The notes beneath the pieces are model-generated. The model was not told the origin of the DNA, searched no databases, and worked only from the letters and a program-made list of their open reading frames with translations. A DNA stretch of 64,000 bases from an uncultured archaeon (lineage in GTDB: Archaea > Thermoproteota > Bathyarchaeia > Bathyarchaeales > Bathycorpusculaceae), in assembly GCA_963782915.1 (NCBI GenBank), contig CAWALK010000015.1, positions 96,001 to 160,000 of the forward strand. Reading direction: 5' to 3'. The stretch's first letter is position 1, and each line of letters starts with the position of its first letter. Of the stretch, positions 15,898 through 40,996 are shown in pieces. The position numbers and the translations under genes were made by a program.

Positions 15898-17768
15898 ATG
15901 CTGTGTCACTTGGAAGTGAACCATACGTACAGACGAATTATCGATTCGTTAGGGAACGCAGTGCTCGTAATTGACGCCGACAACTACGCAATAGTAGATG
16001 TTAATCCAGAAGCGTCAAAACAGCTAAAACTAACAAAACAGGAACTTGTAGGAAAAACATGTTACCAAGTTTCACATCAAAGAACCTCACCGTGCCCCGA
16101 GGAGGCATGCCCCGTACGTATGGCACTTAAAAATATGAAGCCCTGCACGGTTGAACATCAACACTTTGACAAAAACAATAACCCGCAAATCGTGGAGATC
16201 ACAACTTTCCCCCTGCTATCGGAAGAAAGAACAACAGTAATCCACGTTTCCAAAGACATAACAGCACAAAAACAGTTAATTAAAAAAATCCAAGAAGACG
16301 AAAAACGTTACCACGCATTATTCGACCATGCCCCATTAGGCATCCTCATCATAGACCCCCAATTAGCAGCGCCCGTAGAGTTTAACGAATTAGCACATAA
16401 ACAGTTGGGATATACTCGAGAAGAGTTCAGTAAGCTTCGAATTCAAGATTACAAGTATAAAAGAACAAGAAATGAAACCAAAGCCCTCATAGACAAGATT
16501 CTGCAGGAAGGCAAAATCGAGTTTGAAGATAAACACGTTACAAAGAACGGTGATGTACGTGATGTCATCGTTATTTCTCAAGCTATAGAGTTGTCTGGGA
16601 AAACTTATCTGCAGAGTATCTATCGAGACATCACTGAAGCCAAAGAAGTAGAGCTCGCACTTATGGAAAGCGAGACCATGTATCGTTTGCTCGTTGAGAA
16701 TGCCCGTGAAGGCGTCTGGGCTCTTAACGGCAATAACCGCACAGTGTATGTTAACCCAAAAATGGCCAAAATGCTGCGTTACACTGAGAGTGAGATGCGA
16801 GGAAAAACCCTAAACGAGTTTTTGGACAAAAAGGACACCAACGCCGCCAAGAACGGATGGAGCGACTACATTGGCAATCAAGGGGAATGGGAATTCATTT
16901 TTAACGCAAGGATGGAATCCGAATCTATGCGCTCGTCTCTTTCTCAGCTATAGAAGACGACGACGGATGCATCCAGGGAACCCTTGCATTGGTCACAGAC
17001 ATCACCTTACGCCGAGCCATGGAAGAAAAACTGGAGGCGTATTCAAAAAATCTTGAGCAAACCGTAGAGCAAAGAACCAACCAACTGCTTGAGGCACAAT
17101 CTAAACTGGTTAAATCGGAACGCCTCGCTGCTATAGGAGAAGTTGCAGCGATGGTTGGACATGACCTGCGCAATCCATTAACAGGAATAAATGGCGCTGT
17201 ATTTTACCTCAAAAAGAAGCTACCCCCCAATCTGGAGCCTGAAGCATTGCAGATGCTCGACGTCATCGAGAGAGATATCCAATACGCAAATGCCATCATA
17301 ACGGATTTGATGGATTATTCCAGAGAACTCAAACTAGAATTAAGCGAGACAACGCCTAAACGGGTGATCGCCGAGTCGATTTCACTTGTCAAAATTCCAA
17401 AGGACATCCGAATTGTAGATGCAAGCGAGACATTCCCAACTATACTGATAGATGTCGGGAAAATGCAGAGGGTATTTGCGAATTTTATCAAGAACGCAAT
17501 TGAAGCCATGCCTAAAGGCGGTGAATTGTCAATAAAAAGCCGAACCATGGATGGAATGGTTGAATTCAAAATCGCTGACTGCGGCTGCGGCATATCCTCG
17601 GAGGTGCTTGAGAAAATGTGGATGCCCTTTTTTACGACTAAAGCTAAGGGTATGGGGTTGGGTTTAGCGATTTGTAAAGGCATAATTGATGCTCATGAGG
17701 GCAAGGTTTGTGTTGAGAGCACTATTGGGCAGGGTACAGCCTTCACGGTTACTTTACCCATTATTTAA
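15898..17768 (+). CDS. Multi-PAS sensor histidine kinase, split by frameshift(s) near 16900-16990
   Basis: PAS repeats; GHDLRNPL H-box; PFFTTKAKGMGLGL. Confidence 0.85.
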
Positions 17769-17951
17769 AACCAAAAAAATAATGCAGATTATGCTGCCGT
17801 TTAGAGTCGGTATCTGCTCTAAGTCGGGTGAACCGGTGTCGGGGGTAACGAAGTAGAAAACCATTCCGCATGCAAGGCATTTGACTTCTTGATTTCTTTG
17901 GCGTTCAACTCTGGGTGAATGGCATTTTGGGCAACGTAACTGTCCGGACAT
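17754..17951 (-). CDS. Small zinc-ribbon protein
   Basis: CPKC...CLACG; the 3' end overlaps the kinase stop and may be frameshifted. Confidence 0.55.
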   Translation of the reverse strand: MSGQLRCPKCHSPRVERQRNQEVKCLACGMVFYFVTPDTGSPDLEQIPTLNGSIICIIFLVLNNG

Positions 17952-18029
17952 TTCAGATTCTTCCGTGACCCAATCGTTAAAGAATAGTTCAATTAAGTGT
18001 TTTCCCCAAAAAGGGAGGGATATTGAGGA

Positions 18030-19888
18030 TTACTTGGTTTTTCTATTGTGCCGTAATCCGAAGAATAGTAAACCGCTGCCTGCAACGCCTGCGAATATTA
18101 TTGCCCAAAGCCACCACTGCGTCCACACTGGCTGCGCTGGTGTTTGGGCGGTGTTGCTGAGTTGAAGCTCGTCGATGGTGCAGATGGCGTCGTGGCCGAT
18201 GTAGGTTTCAGTTTGCCGCAAAGTGGAGCCTTGGGGATTAGCGGTGCCGGCGGTGACTTTGACTTCTTGTTCTTGATCGTTAACGTAGATGTGCATGCCA
18301 GTGGTTGTGCTGCGTGTGAAGACGACGTGTATCCATTGGTTGAGTTGAACGACGGATTGTGTGGTGACGATTTCGTTTAAGCCCCCGTCTTTTGTGTAGC
18401 ACATATCCGCGGATTGCGCCTAATGCTGCTGCACTATCGTTTTGCGGTGCTTCACCGTTGATTGCTAACCCAAACGTGCGTGTTGGCAGGGCATCGGTGC
18501 CTCGCAGGGCTTCGACGATGATGTTGTTGTATGGGATTGGTTTGTATGATTGCACATTTATCCAGACATCAACCGTTACTTCTCCGCTGATTTCAAGGCT
18601 TGGCGAAGCTGGCACAATTATGTATTGTTGCCCGTCGAAAGCTAAGGCTTTGCCGTATTTGCCCTCTACGGTTTGGGGAACATAGGATTTGTTGACTGTC
18701 ACGGAGCCTAAAATGGCTGGGTTGTTGCCTGTTGAATCGAGGCTTATGCCAGTGGCGTCTATGGTGTCAAATGACCATGAAGCAACTACCCCATTGGATG
18801 CAACTGCTGGTGTTGGATTAGTTGGAGCAGTGTTTCCTAAGTTGGAAGTGTCAAATTTGGCGATGAGGGGATAGTTGTCTTGTGCCCCTGTATACACCTG
18901 GTAGGGTGTGTTGGCTATGCCTGAATTGCCGATTTCGGTTGCAGTTGGGATATTTTGTTTGGTAGTCGCTCCAGTAGTTGCCGCCGCTTTGAGCGCCGTT
19001 ATCCCAGAATTGGACTGGAGTGGACTCGTTAACGTAGACGCCATAGATGTTGCCAACGAAGTTGTTGTGGTAGAAGGTGTTGTCGTGTGGAGCAGCCCAT
19101 TGTGGCGTGATGTAGATGCCCCATTTATTCTGTGATATGTCGTTGGCTGCGAGTATGTTTTTGGAGCCTGCCAACCAGATGGCTGATTCAGTGTTGGAAG
19201 TGAATTTGTTGCCAAACACCACTGAATAGGAAGTTCCTAAACCTAACCCTCTTAAGTTATGGTCGAAGGTGTTGTTGGTTACGGTGTTTGAGTATCCCTG
19301 TAATGCGAGACCTGACACAGCGTTTCCAGTAATGGTGTTGCCTGTAATGTTGTAGTATGAACCAGCATAGAAGCGCATGCCATCTTTGAGGTTATTGGCG
19401 ATGGTGTTATCGATGATTTGGGTGTAGGATTGAACGGAGCAGAATAGGCCCATGTAATTGTTTTGGATTATGTTGCCCTGGATTGTAGTGTGGTCTGCTT
19501 GGATTTTGATGCCTGTGGCGTAGAGGTTGGTGGTTGTGTAGTTTTGGCTTTCAATCGTGAAGCCGATGATTTTTGCGTTGTCAGCATTCAATGCTACGAC
19601 TGGGCGGGATCCTCGGTCAACGCCGCCTTCGCCTATTATTATGGTGGTTTGGCTGTTTTCGCCAATTATCGATATTGACTTGTTTACTTGCAGGTTTTCA
19701 TGATAAACCCCGCTCTGTACAGCTATAGTGTCGCCGTCTGAGGCGTGATTAATAGCTTCAGAGATAGTGGAGTAATCGGTTGGGACAGTAATTGTTTTTG
19801 AGGCGAAGCCTGTTTGGAGATTAATGAGCCAAATTGCCGAGAGTAAGATTACGCTCAGCGCCAAAACTTTTTTGCTGTTTTGATTCAT
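18030..19888 (-). CDS. Secreted NosD/parallel beta-helix plus LamG-like protein with C-terminal TM anchor, split by 2 frameshifts
   Basis: Signal peptide, VPTDYSTI, N-rich beta-helix repeats, GGNYWSDY, GKYGKALAFDG, NQWIHVV and a C-terminal TM helix spread over three frames. Confidence 0.85.
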
Positions 19889-20320
19889 ACCAAGTCACTG
19901 ACATCAATAGTCCTCGGCTTAGATATTACTCTCCCCAAGGAACACCCTGTTCCCGAAGATGGAACACCCAAGATTTAGGCGGGTACCAAAAAATTGGTGA
20001 TTATTAGCAATTAATGGGGATTAAGGACGCAGAATGAAGGGGAAGCTTTTTGAGTGCCCTTGTTCCATATTGCACGCTAAAGGACGTTAATATTTTGTCT
20101 AAAAAAGCAAAGAAAGCAGAAGGATTAGAACACCACAAGCAATTACAGCGAGAAAAAGATCAGAAACGCAAAGACCGCAAACAGGTTTCATTGCCGTCAA
20201 AACTCGCAAACAAGGGCAAAAAGTAGCCCTCCAAAAAAGAACAAGTGCCTTTTTCCTTTTTATAATTTTTACAATCAATGTTATCTTAAAATTTCGTTTA
20301 TTTGCCAGTCTGGAGAATGC

Positions 20321-20390
20321 TCGGGGTCTGTCATTTCGTTTAATTCTTCATCTTTCCCAATCAGACTGGGACGGCGACATCATCCCCCGA
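20321..20390 (-). ncRNA. Box C/D guide sRNA (70 nt); D' guide predicted to target the 23S rRNA G2251 equivalent
   Basis: Minus strand reads TCGGGG-G-ATGATGT(C)-CGCCGTCCCAGT-CTGA(D')-TTGGGAAAG-ATGAAGA(C')-ATTAAACGAAATGA-CAGA(D)-CCCCGA. It has a terminal stem, and both K-turn/K-loop motifs close with compensatory pairs (UGU/ACA and AGA/UCU). Confidence 0.8.
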
Positions 20391-20439
20391 TGGAAAACAC
20401 ACCGTCCCCGACTAAAAAGCCTTGGGTTCAAAGGAGGAA
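20366..20439 (+). repeat. attL: 18-bp core plus element left end
   Basis: 74 bp identical to 26407-26480; similarity continues to about 20511/26548. Confidence 0.9.
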
Positions 20440-21398
20440 GATAAAGATGAAGAAACAAACCCTAAGAACCCCAACAAAGTAAACCAGCAGACCCACAAAC
20501 ATCGGTAAATTAAACATTCCAAACGTTATGCTCTGGATGCTAAACGAACGCCTATGAGCAAACAACGATTAAGAGAGTGGCTAAAGAGCTTAGGCATTTA
20601 GAACGAAACTGCAAAACAAATAACCCCGAAGAAGTTAAACTCTTTATAGCTAAAAAGAACTGTTCAAATGCAAGAAAAGAAAACCTAATTGAGTCATACA
20701 ATATAGCGATAAAATCCTTAGGCTTAACATGGAACAAGCCATTTTATGAGCGCTATGATAAAAAGCGCAGAGCGCCAAAAGAAGCACTTTTAGATTTTAT
20801 GATTAATCATTTACGTTTTGAGATGGCACTTAAACTGTCATTACTCAAAGACTTAGGAACACGTCCACAAGAACTTACTGTGGTTAACAGTCAAAGACAT
20901 TGACCTTAACACTGGATTGGTAAGCATCACAGGAGCTAAAGCACACAGTAGGACGAGATGGGAAACTTAAAGCCAAATCAATGGCACTTGCTCAAAAGCT
21001 ATATAGAGAGAAAACAGCTAAATGCAAACAGCAAACTTTTCGAAGTTCAAGCATCAGACTAATTTAGGCAACGATGTACAGACACGCAAGAAACCGATTA
21101 GCCAAAGACTACAGCATGCCCGAACTCAAACAAATCTGCCTATATGACTTCAGACGCTTCAAAGCATCCAAAGAATACACGCTCTCAAAGCACAACACAT
21201 TCTATGTCAAGCAACTACTTGGACACAAAGACTTCACGAAGCATAGAACGCTACATAAGCGTATTCGATGATTCAAATGTAAACTGGATACCAGTAATAT
21301 GCCATAACCAAGAGGAAATAGAACAAGCAATCAAAGGATGACTGCGATCTTAGTATGCCAAGAGAATGGAATAACGTATTTTAAAAGAGCCTGTTTGA
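20422..21398 (+). CDS. Tyrosine recombinase/integrase, multiply frameshifted as assembled
   Basis: Fragments give NPEEVKLFIA, LLKDLGTRPQE (R), DIDL..GAK (K), YDFRR (HxxR variant), LLGH and IERY (Y). Confidence 0.85.
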
Positions 21399-21411
21399 AA
21401 ACACGTTAAAT

Positions 21412-22433
21412 TATGACAAACGTACAACTATCGAAATAACCCTTTAAAAGTTCGAGAAGAGCTACACCTTCTAGAATTTCCATTGTTTTAAGTGACAAAC
21501 GTGAGGAATTTTTATAAACACCTTGTGGAACAAGGTAAGAGTTGTAAAGAAATCAATCTCCAAATTTATAAAAAATACAAACAATATAAGTCTTCTGAAG
21601 AGCAAAATATGGCATCCCATATTGAAACTCTAGTCGTATGCTATTTAGCTTAATCAATGACGAGTCTATTGGACAACCATTAAAGATTACCATTCTTTCT
21701 GAAATCGGGATTTGTAATAGCTGATAAAAATATGAAAAATGAAGAGAAAAAATGATTCTTACTCTAAAAATTCTTTAATGAAATCAAACCATCGTGGTCC
21801 AAAATGTCATCTGAAAAAGGGATTTATCCAGATGATATAAATGGACACGAACATTCGATTTGTCTAATCGATGAGTACGCTAACAACATTAGCTGTTGCA
21901 ATAAAATTTAATTGTGAGGCAGATATCGACTCAACTTAATACGACAAGCAATTGCAAGAGTTCGAGTTCAGCTTAAAGAATTTGAAACATTAGCGCTATT
22001 ATCACGAATTGAAGGTATATTCAATTGCTATGGTGAATCAAGTAAAATATCAGGATTAAAAGTCTCCATTAAACAATCATCTGGTCTTTTACTTAAAGAA
22101 TTGTTGGAAGACTCAGAAATTATGGCTCTTTCTCAAGAAAGGTATATGTTAGGAATACCGAGTAAGGCTAAACTTGCTCTCAAGACAATCGGACAAAAAA
22201 CACAGGATGTACTTTCGGTTAATAAGAATAGAAAATATCTTGCAATTGCTCAAAAGGTAGGAAATATTGCGACGAAAAATATTGGGTTAGAAATCCCCGA
22301 GTTACCTATCGAGAAAGACACAGAATTCATGCCGCCTTTATTTGCCCTTAACGATTATAAACCAAATTGTCTAGTGACTTTAAAGGGCTCTACCATCGGT
22401 GATGCCCTCACCCAACGAAGAGCAAAACATTGA
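21412..22433 (+). pseudogene. AT-rich hypothetical ORF of element 1, broken by several indels
   Basis: Only the C-terminal 110 aa is intact (22101..22433); upstream sequence looks coding but shifts frame; boundaries approximate. Confidence 0.4.
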
Positions 22434-22454
22434 GTAAAAAGTCTGACGTGGGGG

Positions 22455-22525
22455 TCTCTTCACCCTTAAGCTCGCTTCGCTCCCGCTTGCGCGGGTCGCT
22501 CCGCTTCTGCCTCGCCGAATGTTGA
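22455..22525. other. Candidate rolling-circle origin region
   Basis: GC-rich CGCT-reiterated tract with a CCCGC-TTGC-GCGGG hairpin, downstream of the rep operon and within otherwise AT-rich sequence. Confidence 0.4.
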
Positions 22526-22673
22526 GCAAGAGCCAAACGATGCGTTGAGCTATTCATCAATTTCTTCGTTCTCCCACAAATCATCAAAGGGGACAAAGCC
22601 CAACTGTACTGAATCCAATATTCGCAGGTAACCGCCTACAAAAAGGCATGTGGTAGCGAATTCGCCATGACCC

Positions 22674-22892
22674 TTACCTCTGTTGTGGAAATCGAATAAG
22701 CCCAACATTGAATACCCATACTAATTCATCGGACACTTTGACCGCATGATACTCTATAATATGGGGAGGCTTAAACAACCCATTGCGCTCTAAGAAGTCG
22801 GTGCAGATTGCACCGACCTTTATCTTACTCCACTGGCGCTCTATTCGCCTTCTTTGCTGGCGAAGCATATCTATCCGCACTCCCCATGGCAA
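22674..22892 (-). CDS. Small hypothetical protein overlapping the end of rep
   Basis: 72-aa ORF coupled to rep; no recognised motif. Confidence 0.4.
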   Translation of the reverse strand: MPWGVRIDMLRQQRRRIERQWSKIKVGAICTDFLERNGLFKPPHIIEYHAVKVSDELVWVFNVGLIRFPQQR

Positions 22893-23920
22893 TCGCCTTC
22901 ATGCGCTACCTCCCAAAGCGGTGTCCCATCCTCAGCAAACATGCTTAGGACTTCGCCTTTTCGAGTAAGCAAGAGTTTAGAATTGCCTAAGTATCGAATA
23001 TGGACTAATTCTGAATTGCAGATTGGACACTTATGTTGAATTCCAACGTCTTTATCATCGTTGATTATCTCCAGCTTTCGATAGGAGCAAGCACCGAACC
23101 ATGTTGTCGCATGAGATTTTTTAGAGCCTCTTTGAATAGAGCAGTGATTTAACTGATACCAGCAAGTTCCGCCGACAGTCTTGCGTTTGTCTAAGACTTT
23201 GACAACCCAGCCGTCCTTTTTGTTTTCACGTCTTGTGATGCCTTCAAAGCCTTTGCAGGCGTAGCAGTCACCGCCTTTACATTTACGGCATAAACCGTAA
23301 CCTTCACCACCTACAAAGCCAAGTATGTGAAAGTGTGGACTCCAGCGCCAGCCAAAAGGCACACCTTTAATGCGTGCTTCTTTTCGATTGGCATAGCGGA
23401 AGCCATGAAAGATCATGGAGCCCCCGATTATGCCCCGATTAGCCATTAAACGAACTGCTTTTTTGCGTAGAACATCAAGACTTAAACCATAATCTTCGCT
23501 TCTGAACACTTACTACTATATGTTCTACTGGAAGCCCGAAGCGGTTTGAGGCTACTTTTAAACGTTCTTCCATTCGGTAAGCTTCTCTGACCAGCCCATC
23601 CATACTTGAAACAAATCGGACAAGTAGGTTTATCGCATGAGTGATAAATGGGTTTAACAAAAACTGAATCCTTTGCTAAACCCTCATTAAAGAAACGGGT
23701 TTGATTGTGAGCCTCATAATTTAGGCAGCCCATATATTTGTTGAATGTTCCGCATTTAGGGGATGTCTGTGGTCCATGACCGACAACCTCGTTTTCGCCA
23801 TAACTCCAGAAGTCATTTCTAATTATTGGTTTTTTGTCTGATTCGAACGGTTGATTATATTCAAGCCAAGCAGTTCTCTATTGCGATATTCTGATTATTT
23901 TTTAATTGACTGTTTTCCAA
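22871..23920 (-). CDS. HUH rolling-circle replication initiator (Rep), frameshifted as assembled
   Basis: Joined frames give a Zn motif (KCG..GC..H..SCDKPTCPIC), motif 1 EHIVVS, motif 2 PHFHILG, motif 3 WYQLNH and a C-terminal CPIC. Confidence 0.75.
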
Positions 23921-23996
23921 GTGTTACACCGAAACATTAAGTGCCAACCGTTAATAATAGGAACCGTATAACGTGGTAGAATTCGGAGTACATACT

Positions 23997-24626
23997 ATGT
24001 CCCAGCCTACAGAGGGAGAACATACATCAAAAGGAGTAACGGAAAACCAGTATTTGCCACCATTGCAGAAGCAAATTCTACTTTTCCTCGCTGAGAACCA
24101 TCCTCAATCTAAGATACAGCGTGTCAAAAGGGATGAAGGGATACTACAAATCGGTATATGACGCGATTGATGACCTCATTGAGAAAAAGATACTGGTAGA
24201 AATCAAAGAAGAGGAATACCGAAACCAAAAACACTTAGCGTATTGGCTTACACCCGCGGGAGTATTCATCGCACTTGTTCAAGGAGCCAAGGCTAAAACA
24301 GTCCTTAACAGAACAATCGCAGTTTATCCTGATAACAAGCATGCTTCAATGTATAGTTGAACTCACAACCATTCATAGGTACTGACGTACACCAGATAGG
24401 CTATCAGGCAATTCTCAAAAAAGGTAAATTAGAAAAAAGCGATATTTCGTTAATGTTGGGAACAATGCTTTTGAGGGAATTGAGTTTAGAGCAAGTTACC
24501 CAATTAATAGCTCTTATGAAAAAATATCCAGAGCAATATGGAGACTTAAAGCAACAAACAGATGAAACACTTGAAAAAATGAAGAAGGCTGAATTATTCT
24601 TTAAGGATGCTTTTGAGAAAAGTTAA
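23997..24626 (+). CDS. Winged-helix DNA-binding protein of element 1, split by 2 frameshifts
   Basis: LQKQILLFLAE...YKSVYDAIDDLIEKKILV...YWLTPAG; divergent from rep. Confidence 0.65.
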
Positions 24627-24659
24627 GGATTGACACCGCTCCGTTAGAGAGAAAGTGGG

Positions 24660-24691
24660 AAGCGAGCAACCACAAGGGTTGCCGCCGACTA
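24660..24691. repeat. Cargo-junction site B1
   Basis: AAGCGAGCAACCACAAGGGTTGCCGCCGACTA, preceded by TAGAGAGAAA. Confidence 0.9.
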
Positions 24692-24750
24692 ACGGTTTTT
24701 GTTTTTAATTTTTTGTAAATTAACTGATGACTTTTTTCTTTAAGGGTTGA

Positions 24751-26121
24751 TTAGGAAAGCGGGCGCTTTCTGTATTTATTTTCCTTTTTGCGATACAGCG
24801 CAAGAGTGACTAAGATAATAACAATTACTGGGACACCGATTATCGCCAATTCAATAGGAAAACTCGAAGGTGCATTAATGGTAAAATAGATTGTTTCTGA
24901 TGCATTCATACTGCCATATGTGTCATTCGCGTAGACAGTAAGGTTATGAGCACCATTTGAAAGATCGACTAAAGATAAGTTGTTGGTAAAGGTGACGTTA
25001 TTTTGACCGTCAAGGCTGTAACCACTCCAACTTATGGGCTTATCAAAAGTAATATTCAAGGAAACATTTGATTGATTATATGATTGATTTTGTTTAACTG
25101 AAAAGTTGATTTGCGGTGGAGTGGAGTAGCCGATTGGCGTATACAAGTCATTTAAACCGCTCTGAATTCCTCGAAACTCTTGAAATGTTATACCACCAAT
25201 TGTATAAATAAGATCATTAATATTTGCCACTCCAAAATATTGTCGCACATTAAGCATAGGTGTGCCTTCAGTCCAACTGTCGTTTTCCATATAATATGCT
25301 TTAGTAAGCAGTTCAGCACGTCCCTCGGGGTAGGCATAACCAAAAACGTAAACTAACTTGGGTGCTTTTACGCCTGCAGTTGCAGCGATGCCTAAAATCG
25401 AGTAAAACTCGCAAGGAGTGCTTGCAGTCCAGTTATCGGTTGCGTGATTATAAGTATATAGCACAGGGTCACGCGAGCGAGCGCTAACGATTATCTTATC
25501 ATTAAAGACCGTTGATACTAACCCGAATTCCATATAGTCTATAGGTATTCTTGTTTTTGTAGTCCATGTTTCATTACCGATATTATAAACAAATGTGTCG
25601 CCGACTTGGAAAATATAAATTGAGTCGTTAATCACTTGGGTTGTGCAGAAACCAATGCCATTAGGTGCAGATTTCTTGGACTCCCATATGCCAGAAGTTG
25701 TGTTATAAACCTCAAATGCATTAGTGCCGACATGAACTTGACCCACAAGACCATTTAGCGCAGGTTCGGTATATGATTGCATTCCAGTAATTCCTCCAAT
25801 GCAATAAATCAAGTCCCTATACGCTGCTATAGCGAAAAATGCTCGAGGCGTGGGCATGCTCGTTTTTATAGCCCAATTATCCGTTGCTGGATCATATTCT
25901 TCGTTGTTGCTTAACCCACCTATCATATTTACTCCCAATGAACCACCAATAGCATAAATTTTGTCGCCAACAGTAACTGTTCCTAATCCTGCTCTTGCTT
26001 GATGCATGGCTGCTTTAGGCATCCATGAGTCACTAACGGGGGTTATTCCACTAACAGGCGTAATGGCAACTATGCAAGCGATTAAAATTAGGGCTGATAG
26101 CAATATTGTATAAATTTTCAT
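24751..26121 (-). CDS. Secreted Kelch-repeat protein with Ig-like domain and TM anchor (cargo)
   Basis: Signal peptide, KIYAIGG/MPTPR kelch repeats, YSLDGQNN..GAHNLTVYAND domain, C-terminal TM helix. Confidence 0.88.
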   Translation of the reverse strand: MKIYTILLSALILIACIVAITPVSGITPVSDSWMPKAAMHQARAGLGTVTVGDKIYAIGGSLGVNMIGGLSNNEEYDPATDNWAIKTSMPTPRAFFAIAAYRDLIYCIGGITGMQSYTEPALNGLVGQVHVGTNAFEVYNTTSGIWESKKSAPNGIGFCTTQVINDSIYIFQVGDTFVYNIGNETWTTKTRIPIDYMEFGLVSTVFNDKIIVSARSRDPVLYTYNHATDNWTASTPCEFYSILGIAATAGVKAPKLVYVFGYAYPEGRAELLTKAYYMENDSWTEGTPMLNVRQYFGVANINDLIYTIGGITFQEFRGIQSGLNDLYTPIGYSTPPQINFSVKQNQSYNQSNVSLNITFDKPISWSGYSLDGQNNVTFTNNLSLVDLSNGAHNLTVYANDTYGSMNASETIYFTINAPSSFPIELAIIGVPVIVIILVTLALYRKKENKYRKRPLS

Positions 26122-26406
26122 TGCATCTTTCTTGAGCGATGAATAGTTATATAGTTTTACATTTTAGGTGGATCAATCAAATTGTGATTTTCAAATAAAA
26201 TATTTGAAAAAGGCTTATGAGTTGGTGCAAGGAAGCATCGCCCTGTGAATTTACAATAAAAGGATACTTGATAAATGTTATATTGGCGATTTTGAAAAAC
26301 CGCTTGATAAGCTTATGTCTGAACGTTTGAAGAAACAGGATTAAGGAGCAGGTAGTAGAATTTTTTAGCGCATGCTGTTTGAGCTATACTTCTGATACAT
26401 CTTTTC

Positions 26407-26548
26407 CTGGGACGGCGACATCATCCCCCGATGGAAAACACACCGTCCCCGACTAAAAAGCCTTGGGTTCAAAGGAGGAACAAAAGATGAAGAAACAAAC
26501 CCAAGACCCCCAACAAGTAAACCAACAGCCCCACGACATTGGTAAATT
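26407..26548 (+). repeat. att junction between elements 1 and 2, plus a remnant of the integrase 5' end
   Basis: Second copy of 20366-20511; integrase homology stops after ...DIGK. Confidence 0.88.
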
Positions 26549-26593
26549 TCATTGTCTGCTTACGGATAGTAGGCTAGTAGAGAGAAATGTTGG

Positions 26594-26625
26594 AAGCGAG
26601 CAACCACAAGGGTTGCCGCCGACTA
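26594..26625. repeat. Cargo-junction site B2
   Basis: Identical to B1; the stop codon of 26627..26965 lies 1 bp away. Confidence 0.9.
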
Positions 26626-26626
26626 C

Positions 26627-26965
26627 CTATAGGGATTTAGCGATTTTAGCTTTTTTGTATTCATTAAAGAAGGTTAAGGTTTCTTTCGCTGAGGTAACCA
26701 TTATGGTTTCGGTCTGAGTAAATGTAACGCGAGCCATATTTTCAGGCTCAAGCTCAAACTGCTTAAACGCCTCCATGCTGGGTGTCTCAAAGACAGCCCA
26801 TGAGGTATGCCCCCAGCGGTCAGTCCAAACACCTAAAACAGTTATACCATATTTGGCAGCAAGAGCGTCAATACTTTTCAACCAGCTCATCTTTATGTCT
26901 AAATTTCGGGGATTACCTAAAGGGCAGCTTTCAGGAGAGTGACTAATTACCTGCAAGATATGCAT
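26627..26965 (-). CDS. Small dimeric alpha-beta barrel (GYD/DUF3303-like) protein (cargo cassette)
   Basis: HSPESCP motif and GHTSWAVFETPS; flanked by B2 and B3. Confidence 0.65.
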   Translation of the reverse strand: MHILQVISHSPESCPLGNPRNLDIKMSWLKSIDALAAKYGITVLGVWTDRWGHTSWAVFETPSMEAFKQFELEPENMARVTFTQTETIMVTSAKETLTFFNEYKKAKIAKSL

Positions 26966-27028
26966 ATTAATAACCACTAAATGAAAGCGCTCAAATTTAA
27001 AAATGTAGCACTATAAAAGAGAAATCTT

Positions 27029-27060
27029 AAGCGAGCAACCACAAAGGTTGCCGCCGACTA
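27029..27060. repeat. Cargo-junction site B3
   Basis: 31/32 identical to B1; the single change lies in the hairpin loop. Confidence 0.9.
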
Positions 27061-27249
27061 AAGGACGCCCCGACCTGACTGGCGCTTCACCCATCGTATC
27101 TAAAGAAAGAAGAAAAATAATCACACTCTTTGACCCCTAAATCCTCTTTCCCCTATCTTAGGGAATACAGGGGACTTTTGGACACTAAAGGGCACCCTCC
27201 TCGCACCTAAGGACTCTGTTTTTGCCCTTTGCTAAAAAACTATATAGAG

Positions 27250-28719
27250 TCACGGACGAGTAAATGGCAGTTTTATTATGAATTTTGTTCCTTTGCCTAC
27301 TTCACTTTCAAAACTTATTGTTCCGCCTTGAGCTTCAACCATACGCTTTACAACAACTAGTCCAAAGCCTTGACCTTTAGCTTTAGTGGTAAATAAGGGT
27401 GTAAATAGTTTCTTTTGCACTTCTTTTTGGATACCAACGCCCGTATCTTCAATGGTTATGATGGCTTGGGTATCTTTTCTGCTGGCTTTAGCAGTTAATA
27501 TGCCCCCCTTTGGCATTGCCTGAATTGCGTTATTCACTAGATTTGTTAAGATTCTTCTCATAAAAGTTGGGTCAAGCTTAAGCTTAGGCATAGCTTCTTC
27601 GCAGTCTGCATTTGCTTGAATGTTATCTGGAATAATTATCGTTTTTATTGACTCAGGTATAAGTTGGCAAAGCTCAACTTCAACAAGGTTAGGTTGCAAG
27701 GTTTTAGAGTAGTCTTGCAAATCAGAAACAATCCTGTTAATGTAGTCAACTTGGTCTTGAATTACGTTAATGCTTTCTAATGTATCCTGTTTGATTTGAC
27801 TTTGCGGAGCTTCATTTATTGACTGTTTTTCAATATATAATTCACTAGTTATAGTCTGTAGTGGGTTACGAATGTCATGCCCAACCATGCCTGCAACTTG
27901 TCCAATAGTTACCATGTGCTCATTTTCTTGGAGTTGCTTTTCCATTCGTCTTCTTTCGGTTATGTTTTGCATGTAACCAATTATGCGTGTTGGGTTTCCT
28001 GCTTTATCTTTTAAAACCTTTGAAGCGCCTTGCACGATTATGTAGCCGCCGTCTTTGTGTTGTATGCGGTATTCATTTACCACCTTATCGGCAGAATCGG
28101 TTGGATAAAACTGCTCTTTGACCTTTGCCTTGTCATCTGGGTGCATTTGGCTAATCCACCAATCAACCGTATCAGGAACTTCGCCTGCGGTGTAGCCTAA
28201 AAGCTCTTCTAAGCCTCTAATAATTGTGATGCGATTGGTTTTTTGGTCGATTTCATAAATCATCATGCCAGCAGCTTCAACTACATAATTCAGTCGCTGG
28301 TTGCTTTCCACAAGCCAGCTGTCAACAGTTACCCTTTCAGTAACATCACGGGTTATCGACATTAAGCCGGCTTTGTTGCCCGCTTCATCTTTTAGCACAT
28401 TAATGGTTGTGTTATAAACTGTTTTTGTGCCATCAGGTTGTTGCTGAATGTTAATGCCTTGCCAGTATCCTTGATGCTTTAATGCTAAAAACGCCGTGTG
28501 CTCATCTTCTGGGCTAAACCATAGCTGCCTGTAAAATTGGGTTAGTTTTAAGCCGATGGCTTTTGCTTTGTCTATGTTATATCGTTGTGCTGATGCCTTA
28601 TTTAGGTAAATTAGTCGATCTTGGTTGTCGACCACTACAATGGCATCTCTAATTTGGTCGAAAGCACCAGTTTTCAATAAAAAATCTTTCTCGTTAACTG
28701 AAGCATCAGAAGTCGACAT
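27250..28719 (-). CDS. PAS-PAS histidine kinase (cargo)
   Basis: MHPDD PAS motif, GHDIRNPL, DTGVGI and FTTKAKGQGFGL. Confidence 0.92.
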   Translation of the reverse strand: MSTSDASVNEKDFLLKTGAFDQIRDAIVVVDNQDRLIYLNKASAQRYNIDKAKAIGLKLTQFYRQLWFSPEDEHTAFLALKHQGYWQGINIQQQPDGTKTVYNTTINVLKDEAGNKAGLMSITRDVTERVTVDSWLVESNQRLNYVVEAAGMMIYEIDQKTNRITIIRGLEELLGYTAGEVPDTVDWWISQMHPDDKAKVKEQFYPTDSADKVVNEYRIQHKDGGYIIVQGASKVLKDKAGNPTRIIGYMQNITERRRMEKQLQENEHMVTIGQVAGMVGHDIRNPLQTITSELYIEKQSINEAPQSQIKQDTLESINVIQDQVDYINRIVSDLQDYSKTLQPNLVEVELCQLIPESIKTIIIPDNIQANADCEEAMPKLKLDPTFMRRILTNLVNNAIQAMPKGGILTAKASRKDTQAIITIEDTGVGIQKEVQKKLFTPLFTTKAKGQGFGLVVVKRMVEAQGGTISFESEVGKGTKFIIKLPFTRP

Positions 28720-28982
28720 TAGAACACACAATAGTAGGAATAACCTGCAATTATTATTTTTTGTGCAAATTGAACGCCGTTAAACTGTGTGTATACGCTG
28801 GTGCTGCCGTTAAAAATTGAACCAAGCCGTTAAGACATTTTTCTGTGTGTTGCACCTGTGCTGAGGTTGTCCCAATTTGAACTAACACTTTTCACTTTAC
28901 CCGCCTGTCTAAAAGCGTATAACTGATGTAATAACAAGAAATTGAGGATAATACCTCAGTAAAAAATTACTTTACCCTAAGG

Positions 28983-29000
28983 CTGGGACGGCGACATCAT
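28983..29000 (+). repeat. attR: 18-bp core with the displaced host 5' end of the sRNA
   Basis: Core matches exactly, then the flank diverges; a minus-strand TATA-like AATTAATA lies about 27 bp before box C. Confidence 0.8.
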
Positions 29001-29911
29001 TCCCAATAGAATACGCTCCCCCGATATTATTAATTTTAGCAGGGATTAAAAAAAAGCAGGTTAGTAGTTGTTGCTGCTGTTGTTGCTGCAACCCTGCCCC
29101 CACAATAGTTGCAACTACTAACAAAACTTGCGCTTGTCTTTTACACTAAAGACGGCTATGGAGTATAGCGTATTTTTTTGCCATTGGCAGAAAGAAACAA
29201 CAAAAACAGCTAACGCACAACATACTTCCCCATCCTCATCCCATCCCATCTACATAGCGCCATGTATCGGATGGGGCAAAAAAGTCTCTTATCCCATCCC
29301 AACGCAAACACAAAAACAGCCCGAACCAAAAAACCAACCGCCCCCACAACCCACCCATGGGATGGGGAAACTCGGGGCGATCCCATCCCCACAAAGAACA
29401 AAAACAAACCCACCGCTTGACTTGCAGAGCACGCAGCAAAACAAACCACATCGTTTTTCTCAACTTTCCGGAAGCTAGTTATAAACCCTCAGTAATGAGC
29501 CAATCAGGGAAACCCACCGTTTATGTGCAGCCAAAAAAGCATTTTATCATGCGCCCACACCCACACAGCTTCAACATGGCGCCAATGTATCGAGTGTAGA
29601 GCAAAACATGCAGCCCACACTTAAAACAGGCATAGAAGAACAACCTAAATCCGAAAAGCAACGTAAACCGCAAACATAGGTGTGGTGTGGCAACATTAAA
29701 CGCCCATACCCACACAAAGAAGAAAAAACGAGACCACAAAAAACTAAATCCAACCAATACACCAACCATTCTCTAAGAGAAGTAATGTGCTAATCCTAAA
29801 AGCTGTAATTAAACAACAAGAATAAACACCGCAGATGAACCAACAAATACAAAAGTACTTCCAAAGAAAGGGAAAGCAACATAATCCCCTGTACACGGAA
29901 GCAAACGCTCA

Positions 29912-30172
29912 TTAAACGAGTTTTAATGCTTCGTCTCTTGGGATAGCTGTGAGGGCTTCTACGTCTGCGACGTCTGCGAAGGCGGGCATGAGTTTTATGG
30001 CGTCCTTCTCAGATGGCGCGTCCATGACGCATACGAAGTTGTAATGCCCCAAGGTCCAGTAAAGTTGTAGTTTGATGCCTTGTTTTTCGAGTTGTGCGTA
30101 GGTTTCGCTGAATTTAGCTAATACATCTTTTTTTACGGCTTGTTTCCATTTTAATAAAAATATGAAGATCAA
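29912..30172 (-). CDS. GYD domain-containing protein
   Basis: YWTLGHYNFV (variant of YWTLGxYD). Confidence 0.8.
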   Translation of the reverse strand: MIFIFLLKWKQAVKKDVLAKFSETYAQLEKQGIKLQLYWTLGHYNFVCVMDAPSEKDAIKLMPAFADVADVEALTAIPRDEALKLV

Positions 30173-30325
30173 CGTTTTTCACCTCCCAAACAGGAAGTTA
30201 AGGAGTTATCGGCAAGACTAGTTAGATTGCATGTGTAGTTAAAATTTTCGTTGAGATACCATAGCTAAAAAGTTATTAGTACAATCCGCAAAAAGAACAA
30301 GTATCCAATCAAGAGTTGAGCGTAA

Positions 30326-30823
30326 ATGGAATCCTTCGACAAATACCTACCTGAATACAAAAAACAACTCCAAAAAGGCACCGTAAAAGCCGCATACCAA
30401 GGATTAATGAAGTACTTCGATAACCTGCGATTGCAACTAAAAACCAAGTACCCTGACTATTTCTTGTCCGATGTCCATTATGGGCTGATGGATTATACAT
30501 ACATCTATTTCTTCCCCAAATCGCTTAAACGCCAAAACCTAAAAGTCGTCATACTGTTCACCCATGAATCATTCAAGTTTGAGGTTCTATTGGCTGGCTA
30601 TAATAGGGCTGTTCAAGCAAAGTACTGGAAACTATTCAAAGAGAAAGGCTTTAACAAGTACCCTCTTACCCAAACTGCCACAGAAGCGGATCGTTTCGTG
30701 AGTTCGATTTTAGTTGACAACCCAGATTTCAGCAATTTGGATGCCCTAACAAACCAAATAGAAAGCGACACCTTGAAATTTATCAAGGATATTGAAGGCT
30801 TTTTAGCTGAAACTAAAAGATAG
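30326..30823 (+). CDS. Conserved hypothetical protein
   Basis: Clean 165-aa ORF with GLMDYTY and FEVLLAGYN. Confidence 0.7.
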   Translation: MESFDKYLPEYKKQLQKGTVKAAYQGLMKYFDNLRLQLKTKYPDYFLSDVHYGLMDYTYIYFFPKSLKRQNLKVVILFTHESFKFEVLLAGYNRAVQAKYWKLFKEKGFNKYPLTQTATEADRFVSSILVDNPDFSNLDALTNQIESDTLKFIKDIEGFLAETKR

Positions 30824-40918: not shown

Positions 40919-40996
40919 TGGTGGGCCGGACCGGATTCGGACCGGCGACCTTCTGCACGTCAAGCAGATGTCCTAACCAGGCTAGACGACCGGCCC
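40919..40996 (-). tRNA. tRNA-Val(GAC), CCA encoded
   Basis: GGGCCGG/CCGGCCC acceptor stem; anticodon arm TCTGC-TTGACGT-GCAGA; T-loop TCCGAAT. Confidence 0.93.

Follow-up and report, generated by a model that had tools for sequence, protein, structure and literature searches.

The window, that is, the whole 64,000-nt stretch of DNA analysed here, contains a 66-nt box C/D sRNA gene on the minus strand, an 18-bp core repeat in three copies and, between these copies, two element-like segments, A (20384–26406, 6.0 kb) and B (26425–28982, 2.6 kb) (Table 1). In minus-strand order, the sRNA reads GGGGG-AUGAUGU-CGCCGUCCCAGU-CUGA-UUGGGAAAG-AUGAAGA-14 nt-CAGA-CCCC. The core, CTGGGACGGCGACATCAT, matches without mismatch at all three positions, always on the plus strand, and no fourth site was found in the window when up to two mismatches were allowed. 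Shuffled sequence contained 0.01 matches on average, and none of 100 shuffles had three copies. The minus strand, read from 20388 to 20323, passes through box C and then the guide; therefore the 18-mer, as a reverse complement, spans box C and 11 nt of the D′ guide. Only copy 1 extends leftwards into the D′, C′ and D boxes. The tRNA genes closest to the core copies lie at 40919 and 45406. All of this agrees with the preliminary description, which had claimed three copies of the 18-mer, its match to the reverse complement of box C plus 11 of the 12 guide nt, continuation into the other boxes at the first copy only, and the lack of a nearby tRNA gene.

Table 1 Features of the locus (positions in the window; aa, amino acids).
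Feature	Position	Strand	Remarks
Box C/D sRNA gene, 66 nt	20323..20388	-	boxes in sequence, conservation, rRNA pairing, weak Rfam matches
sRNA 3′ stem CCCC	20326-20323	-	
Terminal box D variant CAGA	20330-20327	-	3/4 vs CUGA
Variable D guide, 14 nt	20344-20331	-	
C′ box AUGAAGA	20351-20345	-	
D′ box CUGA	20364-20361	-	
D′ guide, 12 nt between C and D′	20376-20365	-	
Box C AUGAUGU	20383-20377	-	matches RUGAUGA at 6/7
sRNA 5′ stem GGGGG	20388-20384	-	
Core copy 1, putative attL crossover region	20366..20383	+	exact 18-mer; identity to copy 2 continues to 20388
Element-supplied sRNA 5′ end and upstream region, also int leader	20384..20443	.	93% identical to 26407-26548
CCCCC	20384-20388		within element-supplied region
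Inverted guide copy CACCGTCCC	20400-20408		within element-supplied region
A/T-rich box	20412-20419		within element-supplied region
Tyrosine integrase (int) pseudogene, element A	20444..21388	+	tblastn with intact 320-aa integrase of genome G072
Broken homologue of 111-aa element ORF	22553..22880	-	match in two frames; no Pfam match
Rep-like gene, HFH motif, broken	22874..23823	-	91% identical to 340-aa G072 protein, three frames
Winged-helix-like gene	23985..24333	+	two frames; G072 homologue matches PF25212 below cut-off
40-nt hairpin GCAACC-ACAAG-GGTTGC	24652..24691	.	repeated at 26586 and 27021
Kelch-repeat protein, intact; cargo slot of A	24751..26121	-	signal peptide and C-terminal anchor
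Core copy 2, putative junction of A and B	26407..26424	+	exact 18-mer; left flank without CCCTAAGG end motif
Left end of B	26425..26548	+	sRNA-type 5′ stem, inverted guide copy, first int codons, then truncated
Two hairpin copies	26586-26625, 27021-27060	.	flank 116-aa ORF
116-aa ORF between hairpins	26627-26977	-	
PAS/PAS histidine kinase, intact, cargo of B	27250..28731	-	many paralogues in genome
Element right end, conserved AAAAATTACTTTACCCTAAGG	28962..28982	.	adjoins core copy 3
Core copy 3, putative attR	28983..29000	+	exact 18-mer; aligns with attR of genome G122
Putative old sRNA upstream region, now displaced to the chromosomal flank of attR	29001..29050	.	beyond core unlike copies 1 and 2

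Element A is a fossil; its int gene, its Rep-like gene and two further genes are broken by frameshifts and stops. The int gene is matched in at least two tblastn frames, with stops inside the matches. Its integrase-like frame begins 40 nt (TTG, 20424) or, behind a GGAGG, 64 nt (ATG, 20448) past core copy 1, and the earlier figure of about 40 bp applies to the TTG start. Element B retains only its ends, the hairpins and its cargo, with neither int nor a Rep-like gene, and is an internally deleted, cargo-carrying relative, likewise a fossil.

Element ends and the number of insertions

To the right of the core, copies 1 and 2 have 146 nt in common at 93% identity, and copy 3 has no such match, in support of the earlier proposal that the element supplies the 5′ end of the RNA. 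Within this region, 93 of 97 distinct int-adjacent attL sequences have an inverted guide copy 14–16 nt past the core. In relatives, 17 of 19 core-only copies have the right-end motif beside the core. Beyond copy 3, the position equivalent to 29001–29050 sits, in G122, 143 nt ahead of a shared DUF7000 gene. Elsewhere in the genome, outside the window, there are three extra core copies, one exact and two with one mismatch; each of these orphans adjoins an element right-end motif and has no partner core, an arrangement whose explanation requires later rearrangement or decay.

Two successive insertions are likely but not proven, because the end motif CCCTAAGG, present at copy 3 and at 17 of 19 related right ends, is missing to the left of copy 2. 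The earlier reading of the three copies as attL, tandem junction and attR is supported for integration at the sRNA gene by the int linkage, G122 and the core pairs described below, and is probable for the succession of two events. The missing motif, together with the absence of int and a Rep-like gene from element B, would also fit one composite island, in which a single integration was followed by internal duplication, gene conversion or integrase-mediated rearrangement that generated copy 2 and its 146-nt right flank. We consider such a history unlikely. The left ends of A and B differ at 7% of positions, and therefore any duplication would be old; moreover, a tandem array with three cores occupies the same site in genome G003, and intact elements without the motif exist, for example in G105. 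A weak joint between 20390 and 27200 in one sequencing run, below our reliability bar, would fit a strain without element A.

The box C/D sRNA gene

The gene for the sRNA belongs to the host, a genus of Bathy-6 Bathyarchaeia. It was found at E ≤ 1e-10 in 32 of 36 genomes of the same genus, and the core is present in 108 of 120 genus genomes (72 of the 73 good ones). The full sRNA is a single-copy gene in nearly all good genomes, including those free of integrase homologues. Its internal D′/C′ boxes and 12-nt C-to-D′ guide show the canonical box spacing of an archaeal C/D guide, and the CAGA variant of the terminal box D is kept throughout the genus. An alignment of 20 copies shows no variation in the D′ guide, in contrast to the second spacer.

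Nucleotides 2364–2374 of the LSU (23S) rRNA encoded by the same genome pair with the guide in an 11-bp duplex that includes two G·U pairs. In this duplex, nucleotide 2368, which aligns to E. coli G2251, lies opposite the fifth base upstream of D′. The predicted methylated base is therefore the G2251 equivalent in the P-loop, where the sRNA is predicted to guide 2′-O-methylation. One paper describes Gm at G2251 as universally conserved and yeast snR67 as the guide for Gm2619, equivalent to E. coli Gm2251 (PMC11121408). Like snR67 and other P-loop Gm guides, the sRNA is complementary to the P-loop and has the G2251 equivalent as its predicted target. It differs in that snR67, its best Rfam match, scored far below gathering (19.2 versus 55 bits), and the two may be alike only in the guide, where their common target imposes constraint. 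Seven of the eight weak Rfam matches were CD-box families on the minus strand.

No Rfam family reached its gathering score, box D is CAGA and the upstream region is mostly element-type, as might be expected if the 66-nt sequence were no working methylation guide and were kept only as an attachment site spread by elements or as a promoter region. This is very improbable in light of the canonical box spacing, an invariant guide beside a variable second spacer, and the presence of just one full copy in almost every good genome, integrase-free ones included. Furthermore, the guide and the N+5 rule land exactly on the universally methylated G2251, and the genome encodes fibrillarin (PF01269, 314 bits) and Nop5 (PF01798, 242 bits) in neighbouring genes on its contig C1.

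Integrase linkage and proposed integration at the sRNA gene

Three intact members of the integrase clade matched Pfam PF00589 with 30.9, 29.8 and 53.7 bits (cut-off, 27.1). All 14 intact integrases compared share R146, K171, R241, H265 and Y274, a candidate catalytic set (R..K..H-x-x-R..H/W..Y) with Tyr238 in place of the first His of H-x-x-R. The core directly precedes int in 25 of 25 close homologues from the genus, in 46 of 49 loci from the genome collection (the remaining three begin at a contig end) and in 69 of 80 metagenome loci (ten without upstream DNA, one without a core); the genus and genome-collection sets overlap in source genomes. More distant integrases in the same genomes (32–41% identity) adjoin tRNA-Ala, -Gln or -Val. 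A quick tree places the 29 sRNA-linked integrases on one side of a branch (SH-aLRT 95), opposite 19 others. The suggestion that homologues be checked for C/D sRNA or tRNA neighbours thus gave a clear answer: the close clade sits at the sRNA, and tRNA sites are confined to distant relatives. This strict linkage ties the integrase clade to this sRNA gene.

The constant adjacency of int and sRNA, and the presence of element sequence at the sRNA's 5′ end and upstream of it, would also be seen if the sRNA gene were itself element-borne and adjacency reflected co-inheritance rather than target choice. We find this hard to credit. The 3′ two thirds of the gene lie outside the repeats, beside syntenic host genes, and G122, G096, G014, G015 and G093 all share synteny at the NosD-like left flank. 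Among 20 listed genomes without an integrase-fragment match, 16 still carry the core and sRNA, and in G014 no int lies within 2 kb of the sRNA. Each insert, furthermore, is bounded at its far end by core-only copies.

Occupancy varies between genomes at the same site. At least 30 of the 120 genus genomes, closed or single-contig ones included, contain same-strand core pairs 0.9–22 kb apart, and many genomes have the sRNA and a single core but lack an integrase. All 19 fetched regions have the full sRNA first and core-only copies after it on the promoter side. G122, the nearest relative, shares both flanks at 83–87% identity and carries a different 2.6-kb insert between two cores. The preliminary description had proposed a search for the empty site, which was answered in part: G122 provides the same flanks with another insert, but none of the 120 genus genomes has a strictly orthologous empty site. 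The circular attP that it had also proposed to look for was not found; an attP-like arrangement, with the element end adjoining int, occurred in 0 of 80 metagenome loci, IMG/VR gave no core copy and only one distant integrase match, and none was found in sequencing runs holding only 6–7% of the words. Although the genome is a 25-contig metagenome assembly, the chance expectation of 0.01 and the recurrence of the architecture in dozens of independent assemblies, single-contig ones included, dispose of the concern that the repeats arose by chance or misassembly.

Our results favor, with a probability of about 0.85, a reading in which two decayed integrative elements lie in tandem within the 5′ portion of a host box C/D sRNA gene, which the integrase of this clade targets. 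In the proposed mechanism, tyrosine integrases of the Bathy-6 Bathyarchaeia clade would recombine a circular element with the chromosome, and the crossover would fall inside an identity of 18–23 bp that takes in the 5′ stem, box C and the D′ guide. Once the element is inserted, attL would retain the 3′ two thirds of the gene, now fused to a 5′ stem and upstream region of element origin. A full-length sRNA gene would thus persist, probably transcribed from an element promoter, with int transcribed divergently ~60–80 bp away. What stays behind at attR would be a truncated remnant, made up of the former upstream region, box C and the guide, that abuts the conserved T-rich element end. Judged from sequence, catalysis by this integrase is plausible, and the inverted repeat created by the inverted guide copy may have a role.

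Archaeal integrative elements with tyrosine integrases normally target tRNA genes; in related archaea, this clade instead lies beside a predicted methylation-guide sRNA gene. A review gives, as integration targets in archaea, tRNA genes, intergenic sites and protein-coding genes (PMC8371274). A literature search found no published precedent for a C/D sRNA gene as an integration target, in line with the earlier remark that no described element family with this target was known to its author.

Similar to pNOB8-type integrases that target tRNA genes, a PF00589 recombinase is encoded beside attL and stays whole after integration, the crossover would use a short identity to a conserved small-RNA gene, and the element replaces the displaced gene part; tandem arrays and decayed remnants pile up in both. 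This likeness is one of layout. The target here is a box C/D sRNA gene whose 5′ end is replaced, and therefore the element must bring the upstream region too; the RNA gene is divergent from int, whereas it is co-directional in the pNOB8 type. SSV-type (fusellovirus) integrases are likewise archaeal tyrosine recombinases that insert into a small RNA gene; their attP lies inside int, and integration splits it. An SSV-type integrase was rejected here, as the core lies 40–64 nt upstream of complete int genes (283–320 aa) beside attL. In bacterial prophages and islands in tmRNA (ssrA) and sRNA genes, a non-tRNA small RNA gene also serves as attB and is restored by the element; sRNA genes are reportedly prophage integration sites in one paper. 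Those bacterial systems belong to another domain of life, involve another RNA class and usually use the 3′ end of the gene.

The Rep-like protein and a conserved hairpin

In an alignment of 21 Rep-like sequences, H188-F-H190 and Y247 are invariant and Cys clusters are present; H188/H190 and Y247 may represent an HUH-type motif and its catalytic Tyr. The Atlas features of the protein lie near Rep_1/IS91-Zn clusters (0.95). Searches of an AlphaFold model (mean pLDDT 75) against the PDB with Foldseek returned no match at E ≤ 0.001, and the best matches (E 0.12–0.3) include small ferredoxin-like proteins. The earlier label "Rep" found no confirmation in Pfam, PHROGs, PDB sequences or fold, and we treat it as a lead. 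The elements resemble small rolling-circle plasmids with a Rep_1-type HUH protein in their 4.8–7 kb backbone, HFH, Tyr and Cys clusters, and hairpin; they differ in that the protein has no match in Pfam, PHROGs, PDB sequences, plasmids or phages and no significant fold match. The elements of G072, G092, G099 and G096 have genes of only ~80% identity, yet their 40-nt hairpin is 91–100% identical; this conserved hairpin is a candidate origin.

Anatomy and conservation of the predicted guide-RNA gene at the core repeat

The preliminary description had claimed that the 18-mer CTGGGACGGCGACATCAT occurs three times, and we found all three copies on the plus strand with 0 mismatches; dinucleotide shuffles gave a mean of 0.01 matches. 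As it had also stated, this core, read in reverse complement, comprises box C and 11 nt of the D' guide of a small RNA (sRNA) gene, boxes D', C' and D continue from core copy 1 only, and no tRNA is nearby. The nearest tRNA genes lie 20 kb off. The sRNA, which we place at 66 nt, is arranged as box C, guide, D', C', guide and D, closed by a terminal stem. The observation was confirmed overall and its interpretation is supported. Three extra core copies (one exact, two with one mismatch) lie outside the window in the same genome (3.28 Mb, 25 contigs), of which the window is C15:96001-160000.

Coordinates of the sRNA gene, core copies and element features in the window
Feature	Coordinates	Strand	State or sequence
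sRNA gene	20388..20323	-	GGGGG-AUGAUGU-CGCCGUCCCAGU-CUGA-UUGGGAAAG-AUGAAGA-AUUAAACGAAAUGA-CAGA-CCCC (read from sequence)
Core copy 1 (attL)	from 20366	+	
Core copy 2 (A/B junction)	from 26407	+	
Core copy 3 (attR)	from 28983	+	
Element A	20384-26406		
Integrase gene (int), element A	20444-21388		split over two or three frames, plus stops
111-aa ORF, element A	22553-22880		split over two or three frames
Rep-like gene, element A	22874-23823		split over two or three frames
Winged-helix gene, element A	23985-24333		split over two or three frames
Kelch-repeat surface protein, element A cargo	24751-26121		intact
Element B	26425-28982		
PAS histidine kinase, element B	27250-28731		intact
40-nt hairpin, three copies	24652-24691, 26586-26625, 27021-27060		GCAACC-ACAAG-GGTTGC core
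Multi-copy repeat	29051-29728		

The sRNA gene belongs to the host and is conserved: a 121-nt query spanning it matched over 63-80 nt in 32 of 36 genomes of the genus (E ≤ 1e-10). The genus is of the Bathy-6 group, placed in GTDB family UBA233 by PMC11697101. An alignment of 20 copies showed a variable second spacer but no changes in box C, the 12-nt D' guide, D', C', the CAGA box or the stems. With up to two mismatches, the core is present in 108 of 120 genus genomes, including 72 of the 73 good ones (completeness ≥90%, contamination ≤5%), and it still occurs in 16 of the 20 listed genomes that lack an integrase-fragment match. Five genomes (G122, G096, G014, G015 and G093) share the synteny of the sRNA with its left-flanking gene, which encodes a NosD-like beta-helix protein.

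The D' guide pairs with LSU rRNA of the same genome at 2364-2374 (GCUGGGGCGGC) over 11 bp, including two G.U pairs. By the 'fifth base' rule, the fifth base upstream of D or D' marks the methylated position. LSU 2368 lies opposite this guide position and corresponds to E. coli G2251 in a pairwise alignment (numbering from rrlH of K-12). The text of PMC11121408 describes Gm2251 as universally conserved, with Gm2619 as its yeast equivalent and snR67 as the yeast guide. No Rfam family matched the sRNA at gathering scores; at loose thresholds, seven of eight weak matches were CD-box families on the minus strand, the best being snR67 (19.2 bits against a gathering score of 55, E 0.084). Fibrillarin and Nop5 genes stand side by side in this genome. 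For the D guide (20331-20344), a scan restricted to rRNA found no match of 10-13 nt with ≤2 mismatches. Indirect but strong evidence predicts a functional P-loop methylation guide in uncultivated Bathyarchaeia.

Insertions at the sRNA gene and the linked integrases

We read the locus as integrative elements residing in the box C/D sRNA gene, with a probability of about 0.85. Among the matches listed, at least 30 of the 120 genomes carry same-strand cores, two or three to a single contig, at spacings of 0.9-22 kb, and core pairs were found in two more (G029 and G136). The full sRNA comes first and core-only copies lie on its 5'-end side in all 19 fetched regions, and a conserved element end, ...AAATTACTTTGCCCTAAGG, precedes 17 of the 19 core-only copies. 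G122, the nearest relative (83-87% DNA identity), aligns with window positions 17633-20665, covering the left flank, sRNA, core and 280 nt of the element's left end, then at 28957-29003 (element end and core) and again from 30324 onwards. Its two cores enclose 2.6 kb of unrelated genes, namely a GltD-like oxidoreductase and a 181-aa protein.

The reading frame after core copy 1 is a broken tyrosine integrase, and homologues of its 108-aa fragment occur in 97 of 120 genus genomes. It had been proposed to check whether such homologues adjoin C/D sRNAs; the core indeed lies upstream in 25 of 25, 46 of 49 and 69 of 80 loci. At all 25 close loci (E ≤ 2e-28; L030-L054), the full sRNA with its core stands directly upstream on the same strand. 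The 49 loci from a species-representative collection, found with an alignment of intact Int and overlapping in source genomes with the 25, comprise 44 with the full sRNA, two with the core at a contig edge and three that start inside int. The 80 metagenome loci comprise 65 with the full sRNA, three with the core beside another left flank, one with the core at a contig edge, ten without upstream DNA and one without the core. Fourteen aligned intact Int proteins (283-320 aa) keep R146, K171, Y238-D-F-R241, H265 and Y274, and three clade members pass Pfam PF00589.

None of 22 more distant homologues (32-41% identity) has the core. Half of them (11/22) are preceded, at a distance of ~100 nt and in the same orientation, by a tRNA gene (Ala-CGC or -GGC, Gln-CUG, Val-UAC); these tRNA-adjacent sister integrases come from the same genus (L056, L058, L211, L212, L215-L218, L222, L224 and L225). 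A quick maximum-likelihood tree of 48 proteins, with eight short ORFs omitted, places 29 sRNA-linked integrases on one side of a branch (SH-aLRT 95); because it is unrooted and its sRNA-linked rows were recruited by similarity, it shows consistency rather than direction. A whole integrase clade is tied to one box C/D guide-RNA gene. Four integrase contigs (L080, L094, L103 and L107), three of them also with the sRNA core, are filed as Methanocella, Sulfotelmatobacter, Pirellulales and 'Crenarchaeota' MAGs, labels that are probably binning or labelling errors. One sister-integrase locus without a tRNA (L221) also encodes a homologue of the Rep-like protein.

Two forms that had been suggested as checks, an empty site and a circular attP, were not recovered. 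A 20-kb DNA query against the 120 genus genomes gave no orthologous empty site with both flanks, and G122, the one genome in which the right-flank gene adjoins the locus, has an insert of its own there; G014 carries the sRNA with a single core and no integrase within 2 kb. No circular form appeared in IMG/VR or in the 80 metagenome loci: a search of IMG/VR for related loci returned one distant integrase match (25% identity), exact-pattern scans there returned 0 for the core combined with either the element end or CCCC, and the element end stood beside int in 0 of the 80 loci. Four sequencing runs, all compared as contigs and none recorded as RNA, each contained 6-7% of sampled words and gave fragmentary cover of the window at 90% likeness; nothing is concluded from their contigs. 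One contig of run X2 departs from the window sequence exactly at 20388, and a joint from 20390 to 27200 in run X3 has a shorter side of 26 letters, below the reliability bar. At metagenome loci L134, L147, L151, L204 and L174, several contigs start at the sRNA and stop no more than ~100 nt past the attR core; assembly seems to break at att sites there, which would be expected if a sample contained both occupied and empty sites.

tRNA genes are the textbook integration site for integrases of archaea and bacteria. The present elements share their mechanism with classical tyrosine-integrase elements that keep int whole, but differ in target class, in the gene end that is replaced and in the need for promoter supply, since replacing the other end of the gene requires the element to bring a promoter. 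Unlike SSV-type elements, they have the core upstream of complete int genes. According to a 2021 review (PMC8371274), archaeal tyrosine recombinases target tRNA genes, intergenic regions and protein-coding genes; its text contains none of the terms 'sRNA', 'snoRNA' and 'non-coding'. In a Thaumarchaeota survey (PMC6563490), 39 sites fall in tRNA genes, 15 are intergenic and 14 fall in protein genes, and the word 'sRNA' is absent from its article text and from those of PMC10541130 and PMC11697101. The preliminary description knew of no element family with such a target; likewise, searches of article full texts yielded no report of a C/D sRNA gene as att site, and Table S2 of PMC6563490, with the 15 intergenic sites, might include a similar case. 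A clade dedicated to a box C/D guide-RNA gene represents a new class of integrase target, and its tRNA-using sisters in the same genomes give a view of target switching in practice. The defined attB of 18-23 bp and matching integrases are possible tools for a lineage without genetics. Additionally, 'intergenic' integration sites described for other archaea may conceal unannotated sRNA genes.

Elements A and B

Element A has the same backbone as intact relatives such as the 4.8-kb element of G072, consisting of int, a 111-aa ORF, a 340-aa Rep-like protein, a winged-helix protein and a cargo slot for a membrane protein. The Rep-like protein had no Pfam, PHROG, PDB-sequence, plasmid or phage match, and its structural model (mean pLDDT 75) matched no PDB fold at E ≤ 0.001. 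Comparison of 21 homologues shows a conserved H-F-H motif, one conserved Tyr and three clusters of Cys, and language-model features place it near clusters with 17-64% Rep_1 members, some with an IS91 zinc domain (score 0.95).

The first 124 nt of element B repeat the left end of A at 93% identity, including the first int codons. The sequence then jumps to a conserved 40-nt hairpin, a 116-aa ORF and a second hairpin, and finishes with the PAS histidine kinase and the conserved end motif; element B looks like an internally deleted relative. The kinase has dozens of paralogues genome-wide at 65-80% DNA identity. Two successive insertions in tandem, as first described, are the likely history of the window, and certainty is withheld because the end motif is missing from the left flank of core copy 2, an absence shared by 2 of 19 related ends. 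The hairpin, also found at C15:41210-41259 of this genome (G000), is 91-100% identical across species, compared with only about 80% for element genes, which fits a candidate replication origin or regulatory site.

Sequences supplied by the element, and orphan junctions

Int-adjacent sequences to the right of the core keep CCCCC, so the 5' stem of the sRNA is preserved. An inverted copy of the guide, CAYCGTCCC (window 20400-20408), occupies a constant position, 14-16 nt past the core, in 93 of 97 distinct attL sequences; of 11 attR flanks, only 5 have it. An imperfect inverted repeat of ~20 nt, between the right end plus core and the left arm, beats shuffles in about half of 12 elements. Beyond the inverted guide copy lies an A/T-rich box, ~23-28 nt before the expected sRNA start and ~30 nt before the int start. 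These features would provide a putative divergent promoter shared by the sRNA and int, along with arms for integrase binding, the candidates for which are the inverted guide copy and the CCCTAAGG arm. We also considered the upstream guide copy as part of the sRNA transcript, but its position, past the A/T-rich box and ahead of the start expected ~23-25 nt downstream, makes transcription improbable.

Each insertion would displace a stub, a truncated box C and guide left at attR. On the RNA strand, the guide of this stub runs straight into the conserved right end, CCUUAGGGCAAAGUAAUUUUU, and we guess that this end serves as the stub's terminator. A variant element end, with a GC hairpin and then ATCAGA directly before the core, occurs at the middle core of L063 (genome G003) and at L137. 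There the stub would read box C, guide, CUGA, hairpin and T-run on the RNA strand, a possible minimal C/D RNA.

Because the 5' end of the sRNA is replaced, the element would have to supply a promoter, and expression of the host RNA would then depend on mobile DNA. An extended reading, which we consider rather unlikely as a whole, is that the sRNA 5' stem and promoter are mobile-element-derived throughout the genus and renewed at each integration. A conserved inverted repeat, made up of the guide half of the core and its mirror 14-16 nt past the core, would with the shared A/T-rich box link transcription of the sRNA to int expression and to binding of the integrase, imprecise loss of the element would silence the guide RNA in a form of addiction, and the variant end of G003 and L137 might turn the attR stub into a second minimal C-guide-D RNA.

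Orphan junctions, each a conserved element end with a core, lie elsewhere in this genome at C15:40305-40322(-), C25:107291-107308(-) and C25:123114-123131(+), and no partner core was found for any of the three. Those at C25:107291 and C15:40305 adjoin a paralogue or remnant of the element's membrane-protein gene; the latter is also near a hairpin copy and, 76 kb from the window locus on contig C15, has the opposite orientation to it. All three junctions resemble remnants that were relocated or truncated when the genome was later rearranged. One contig of run X1 is the C25 orphan site.

Just past attR in the window lies the multi-copy repeat, parts of which are found again, with 70-90% identity, on seven or more other contigs. 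Rfam gave no match within 28900-30400, and the 1.3-kb stretch that holds the repeat (29004-30323) is absent from the same spot in G122. The repeat may be a MITE-like insertion.
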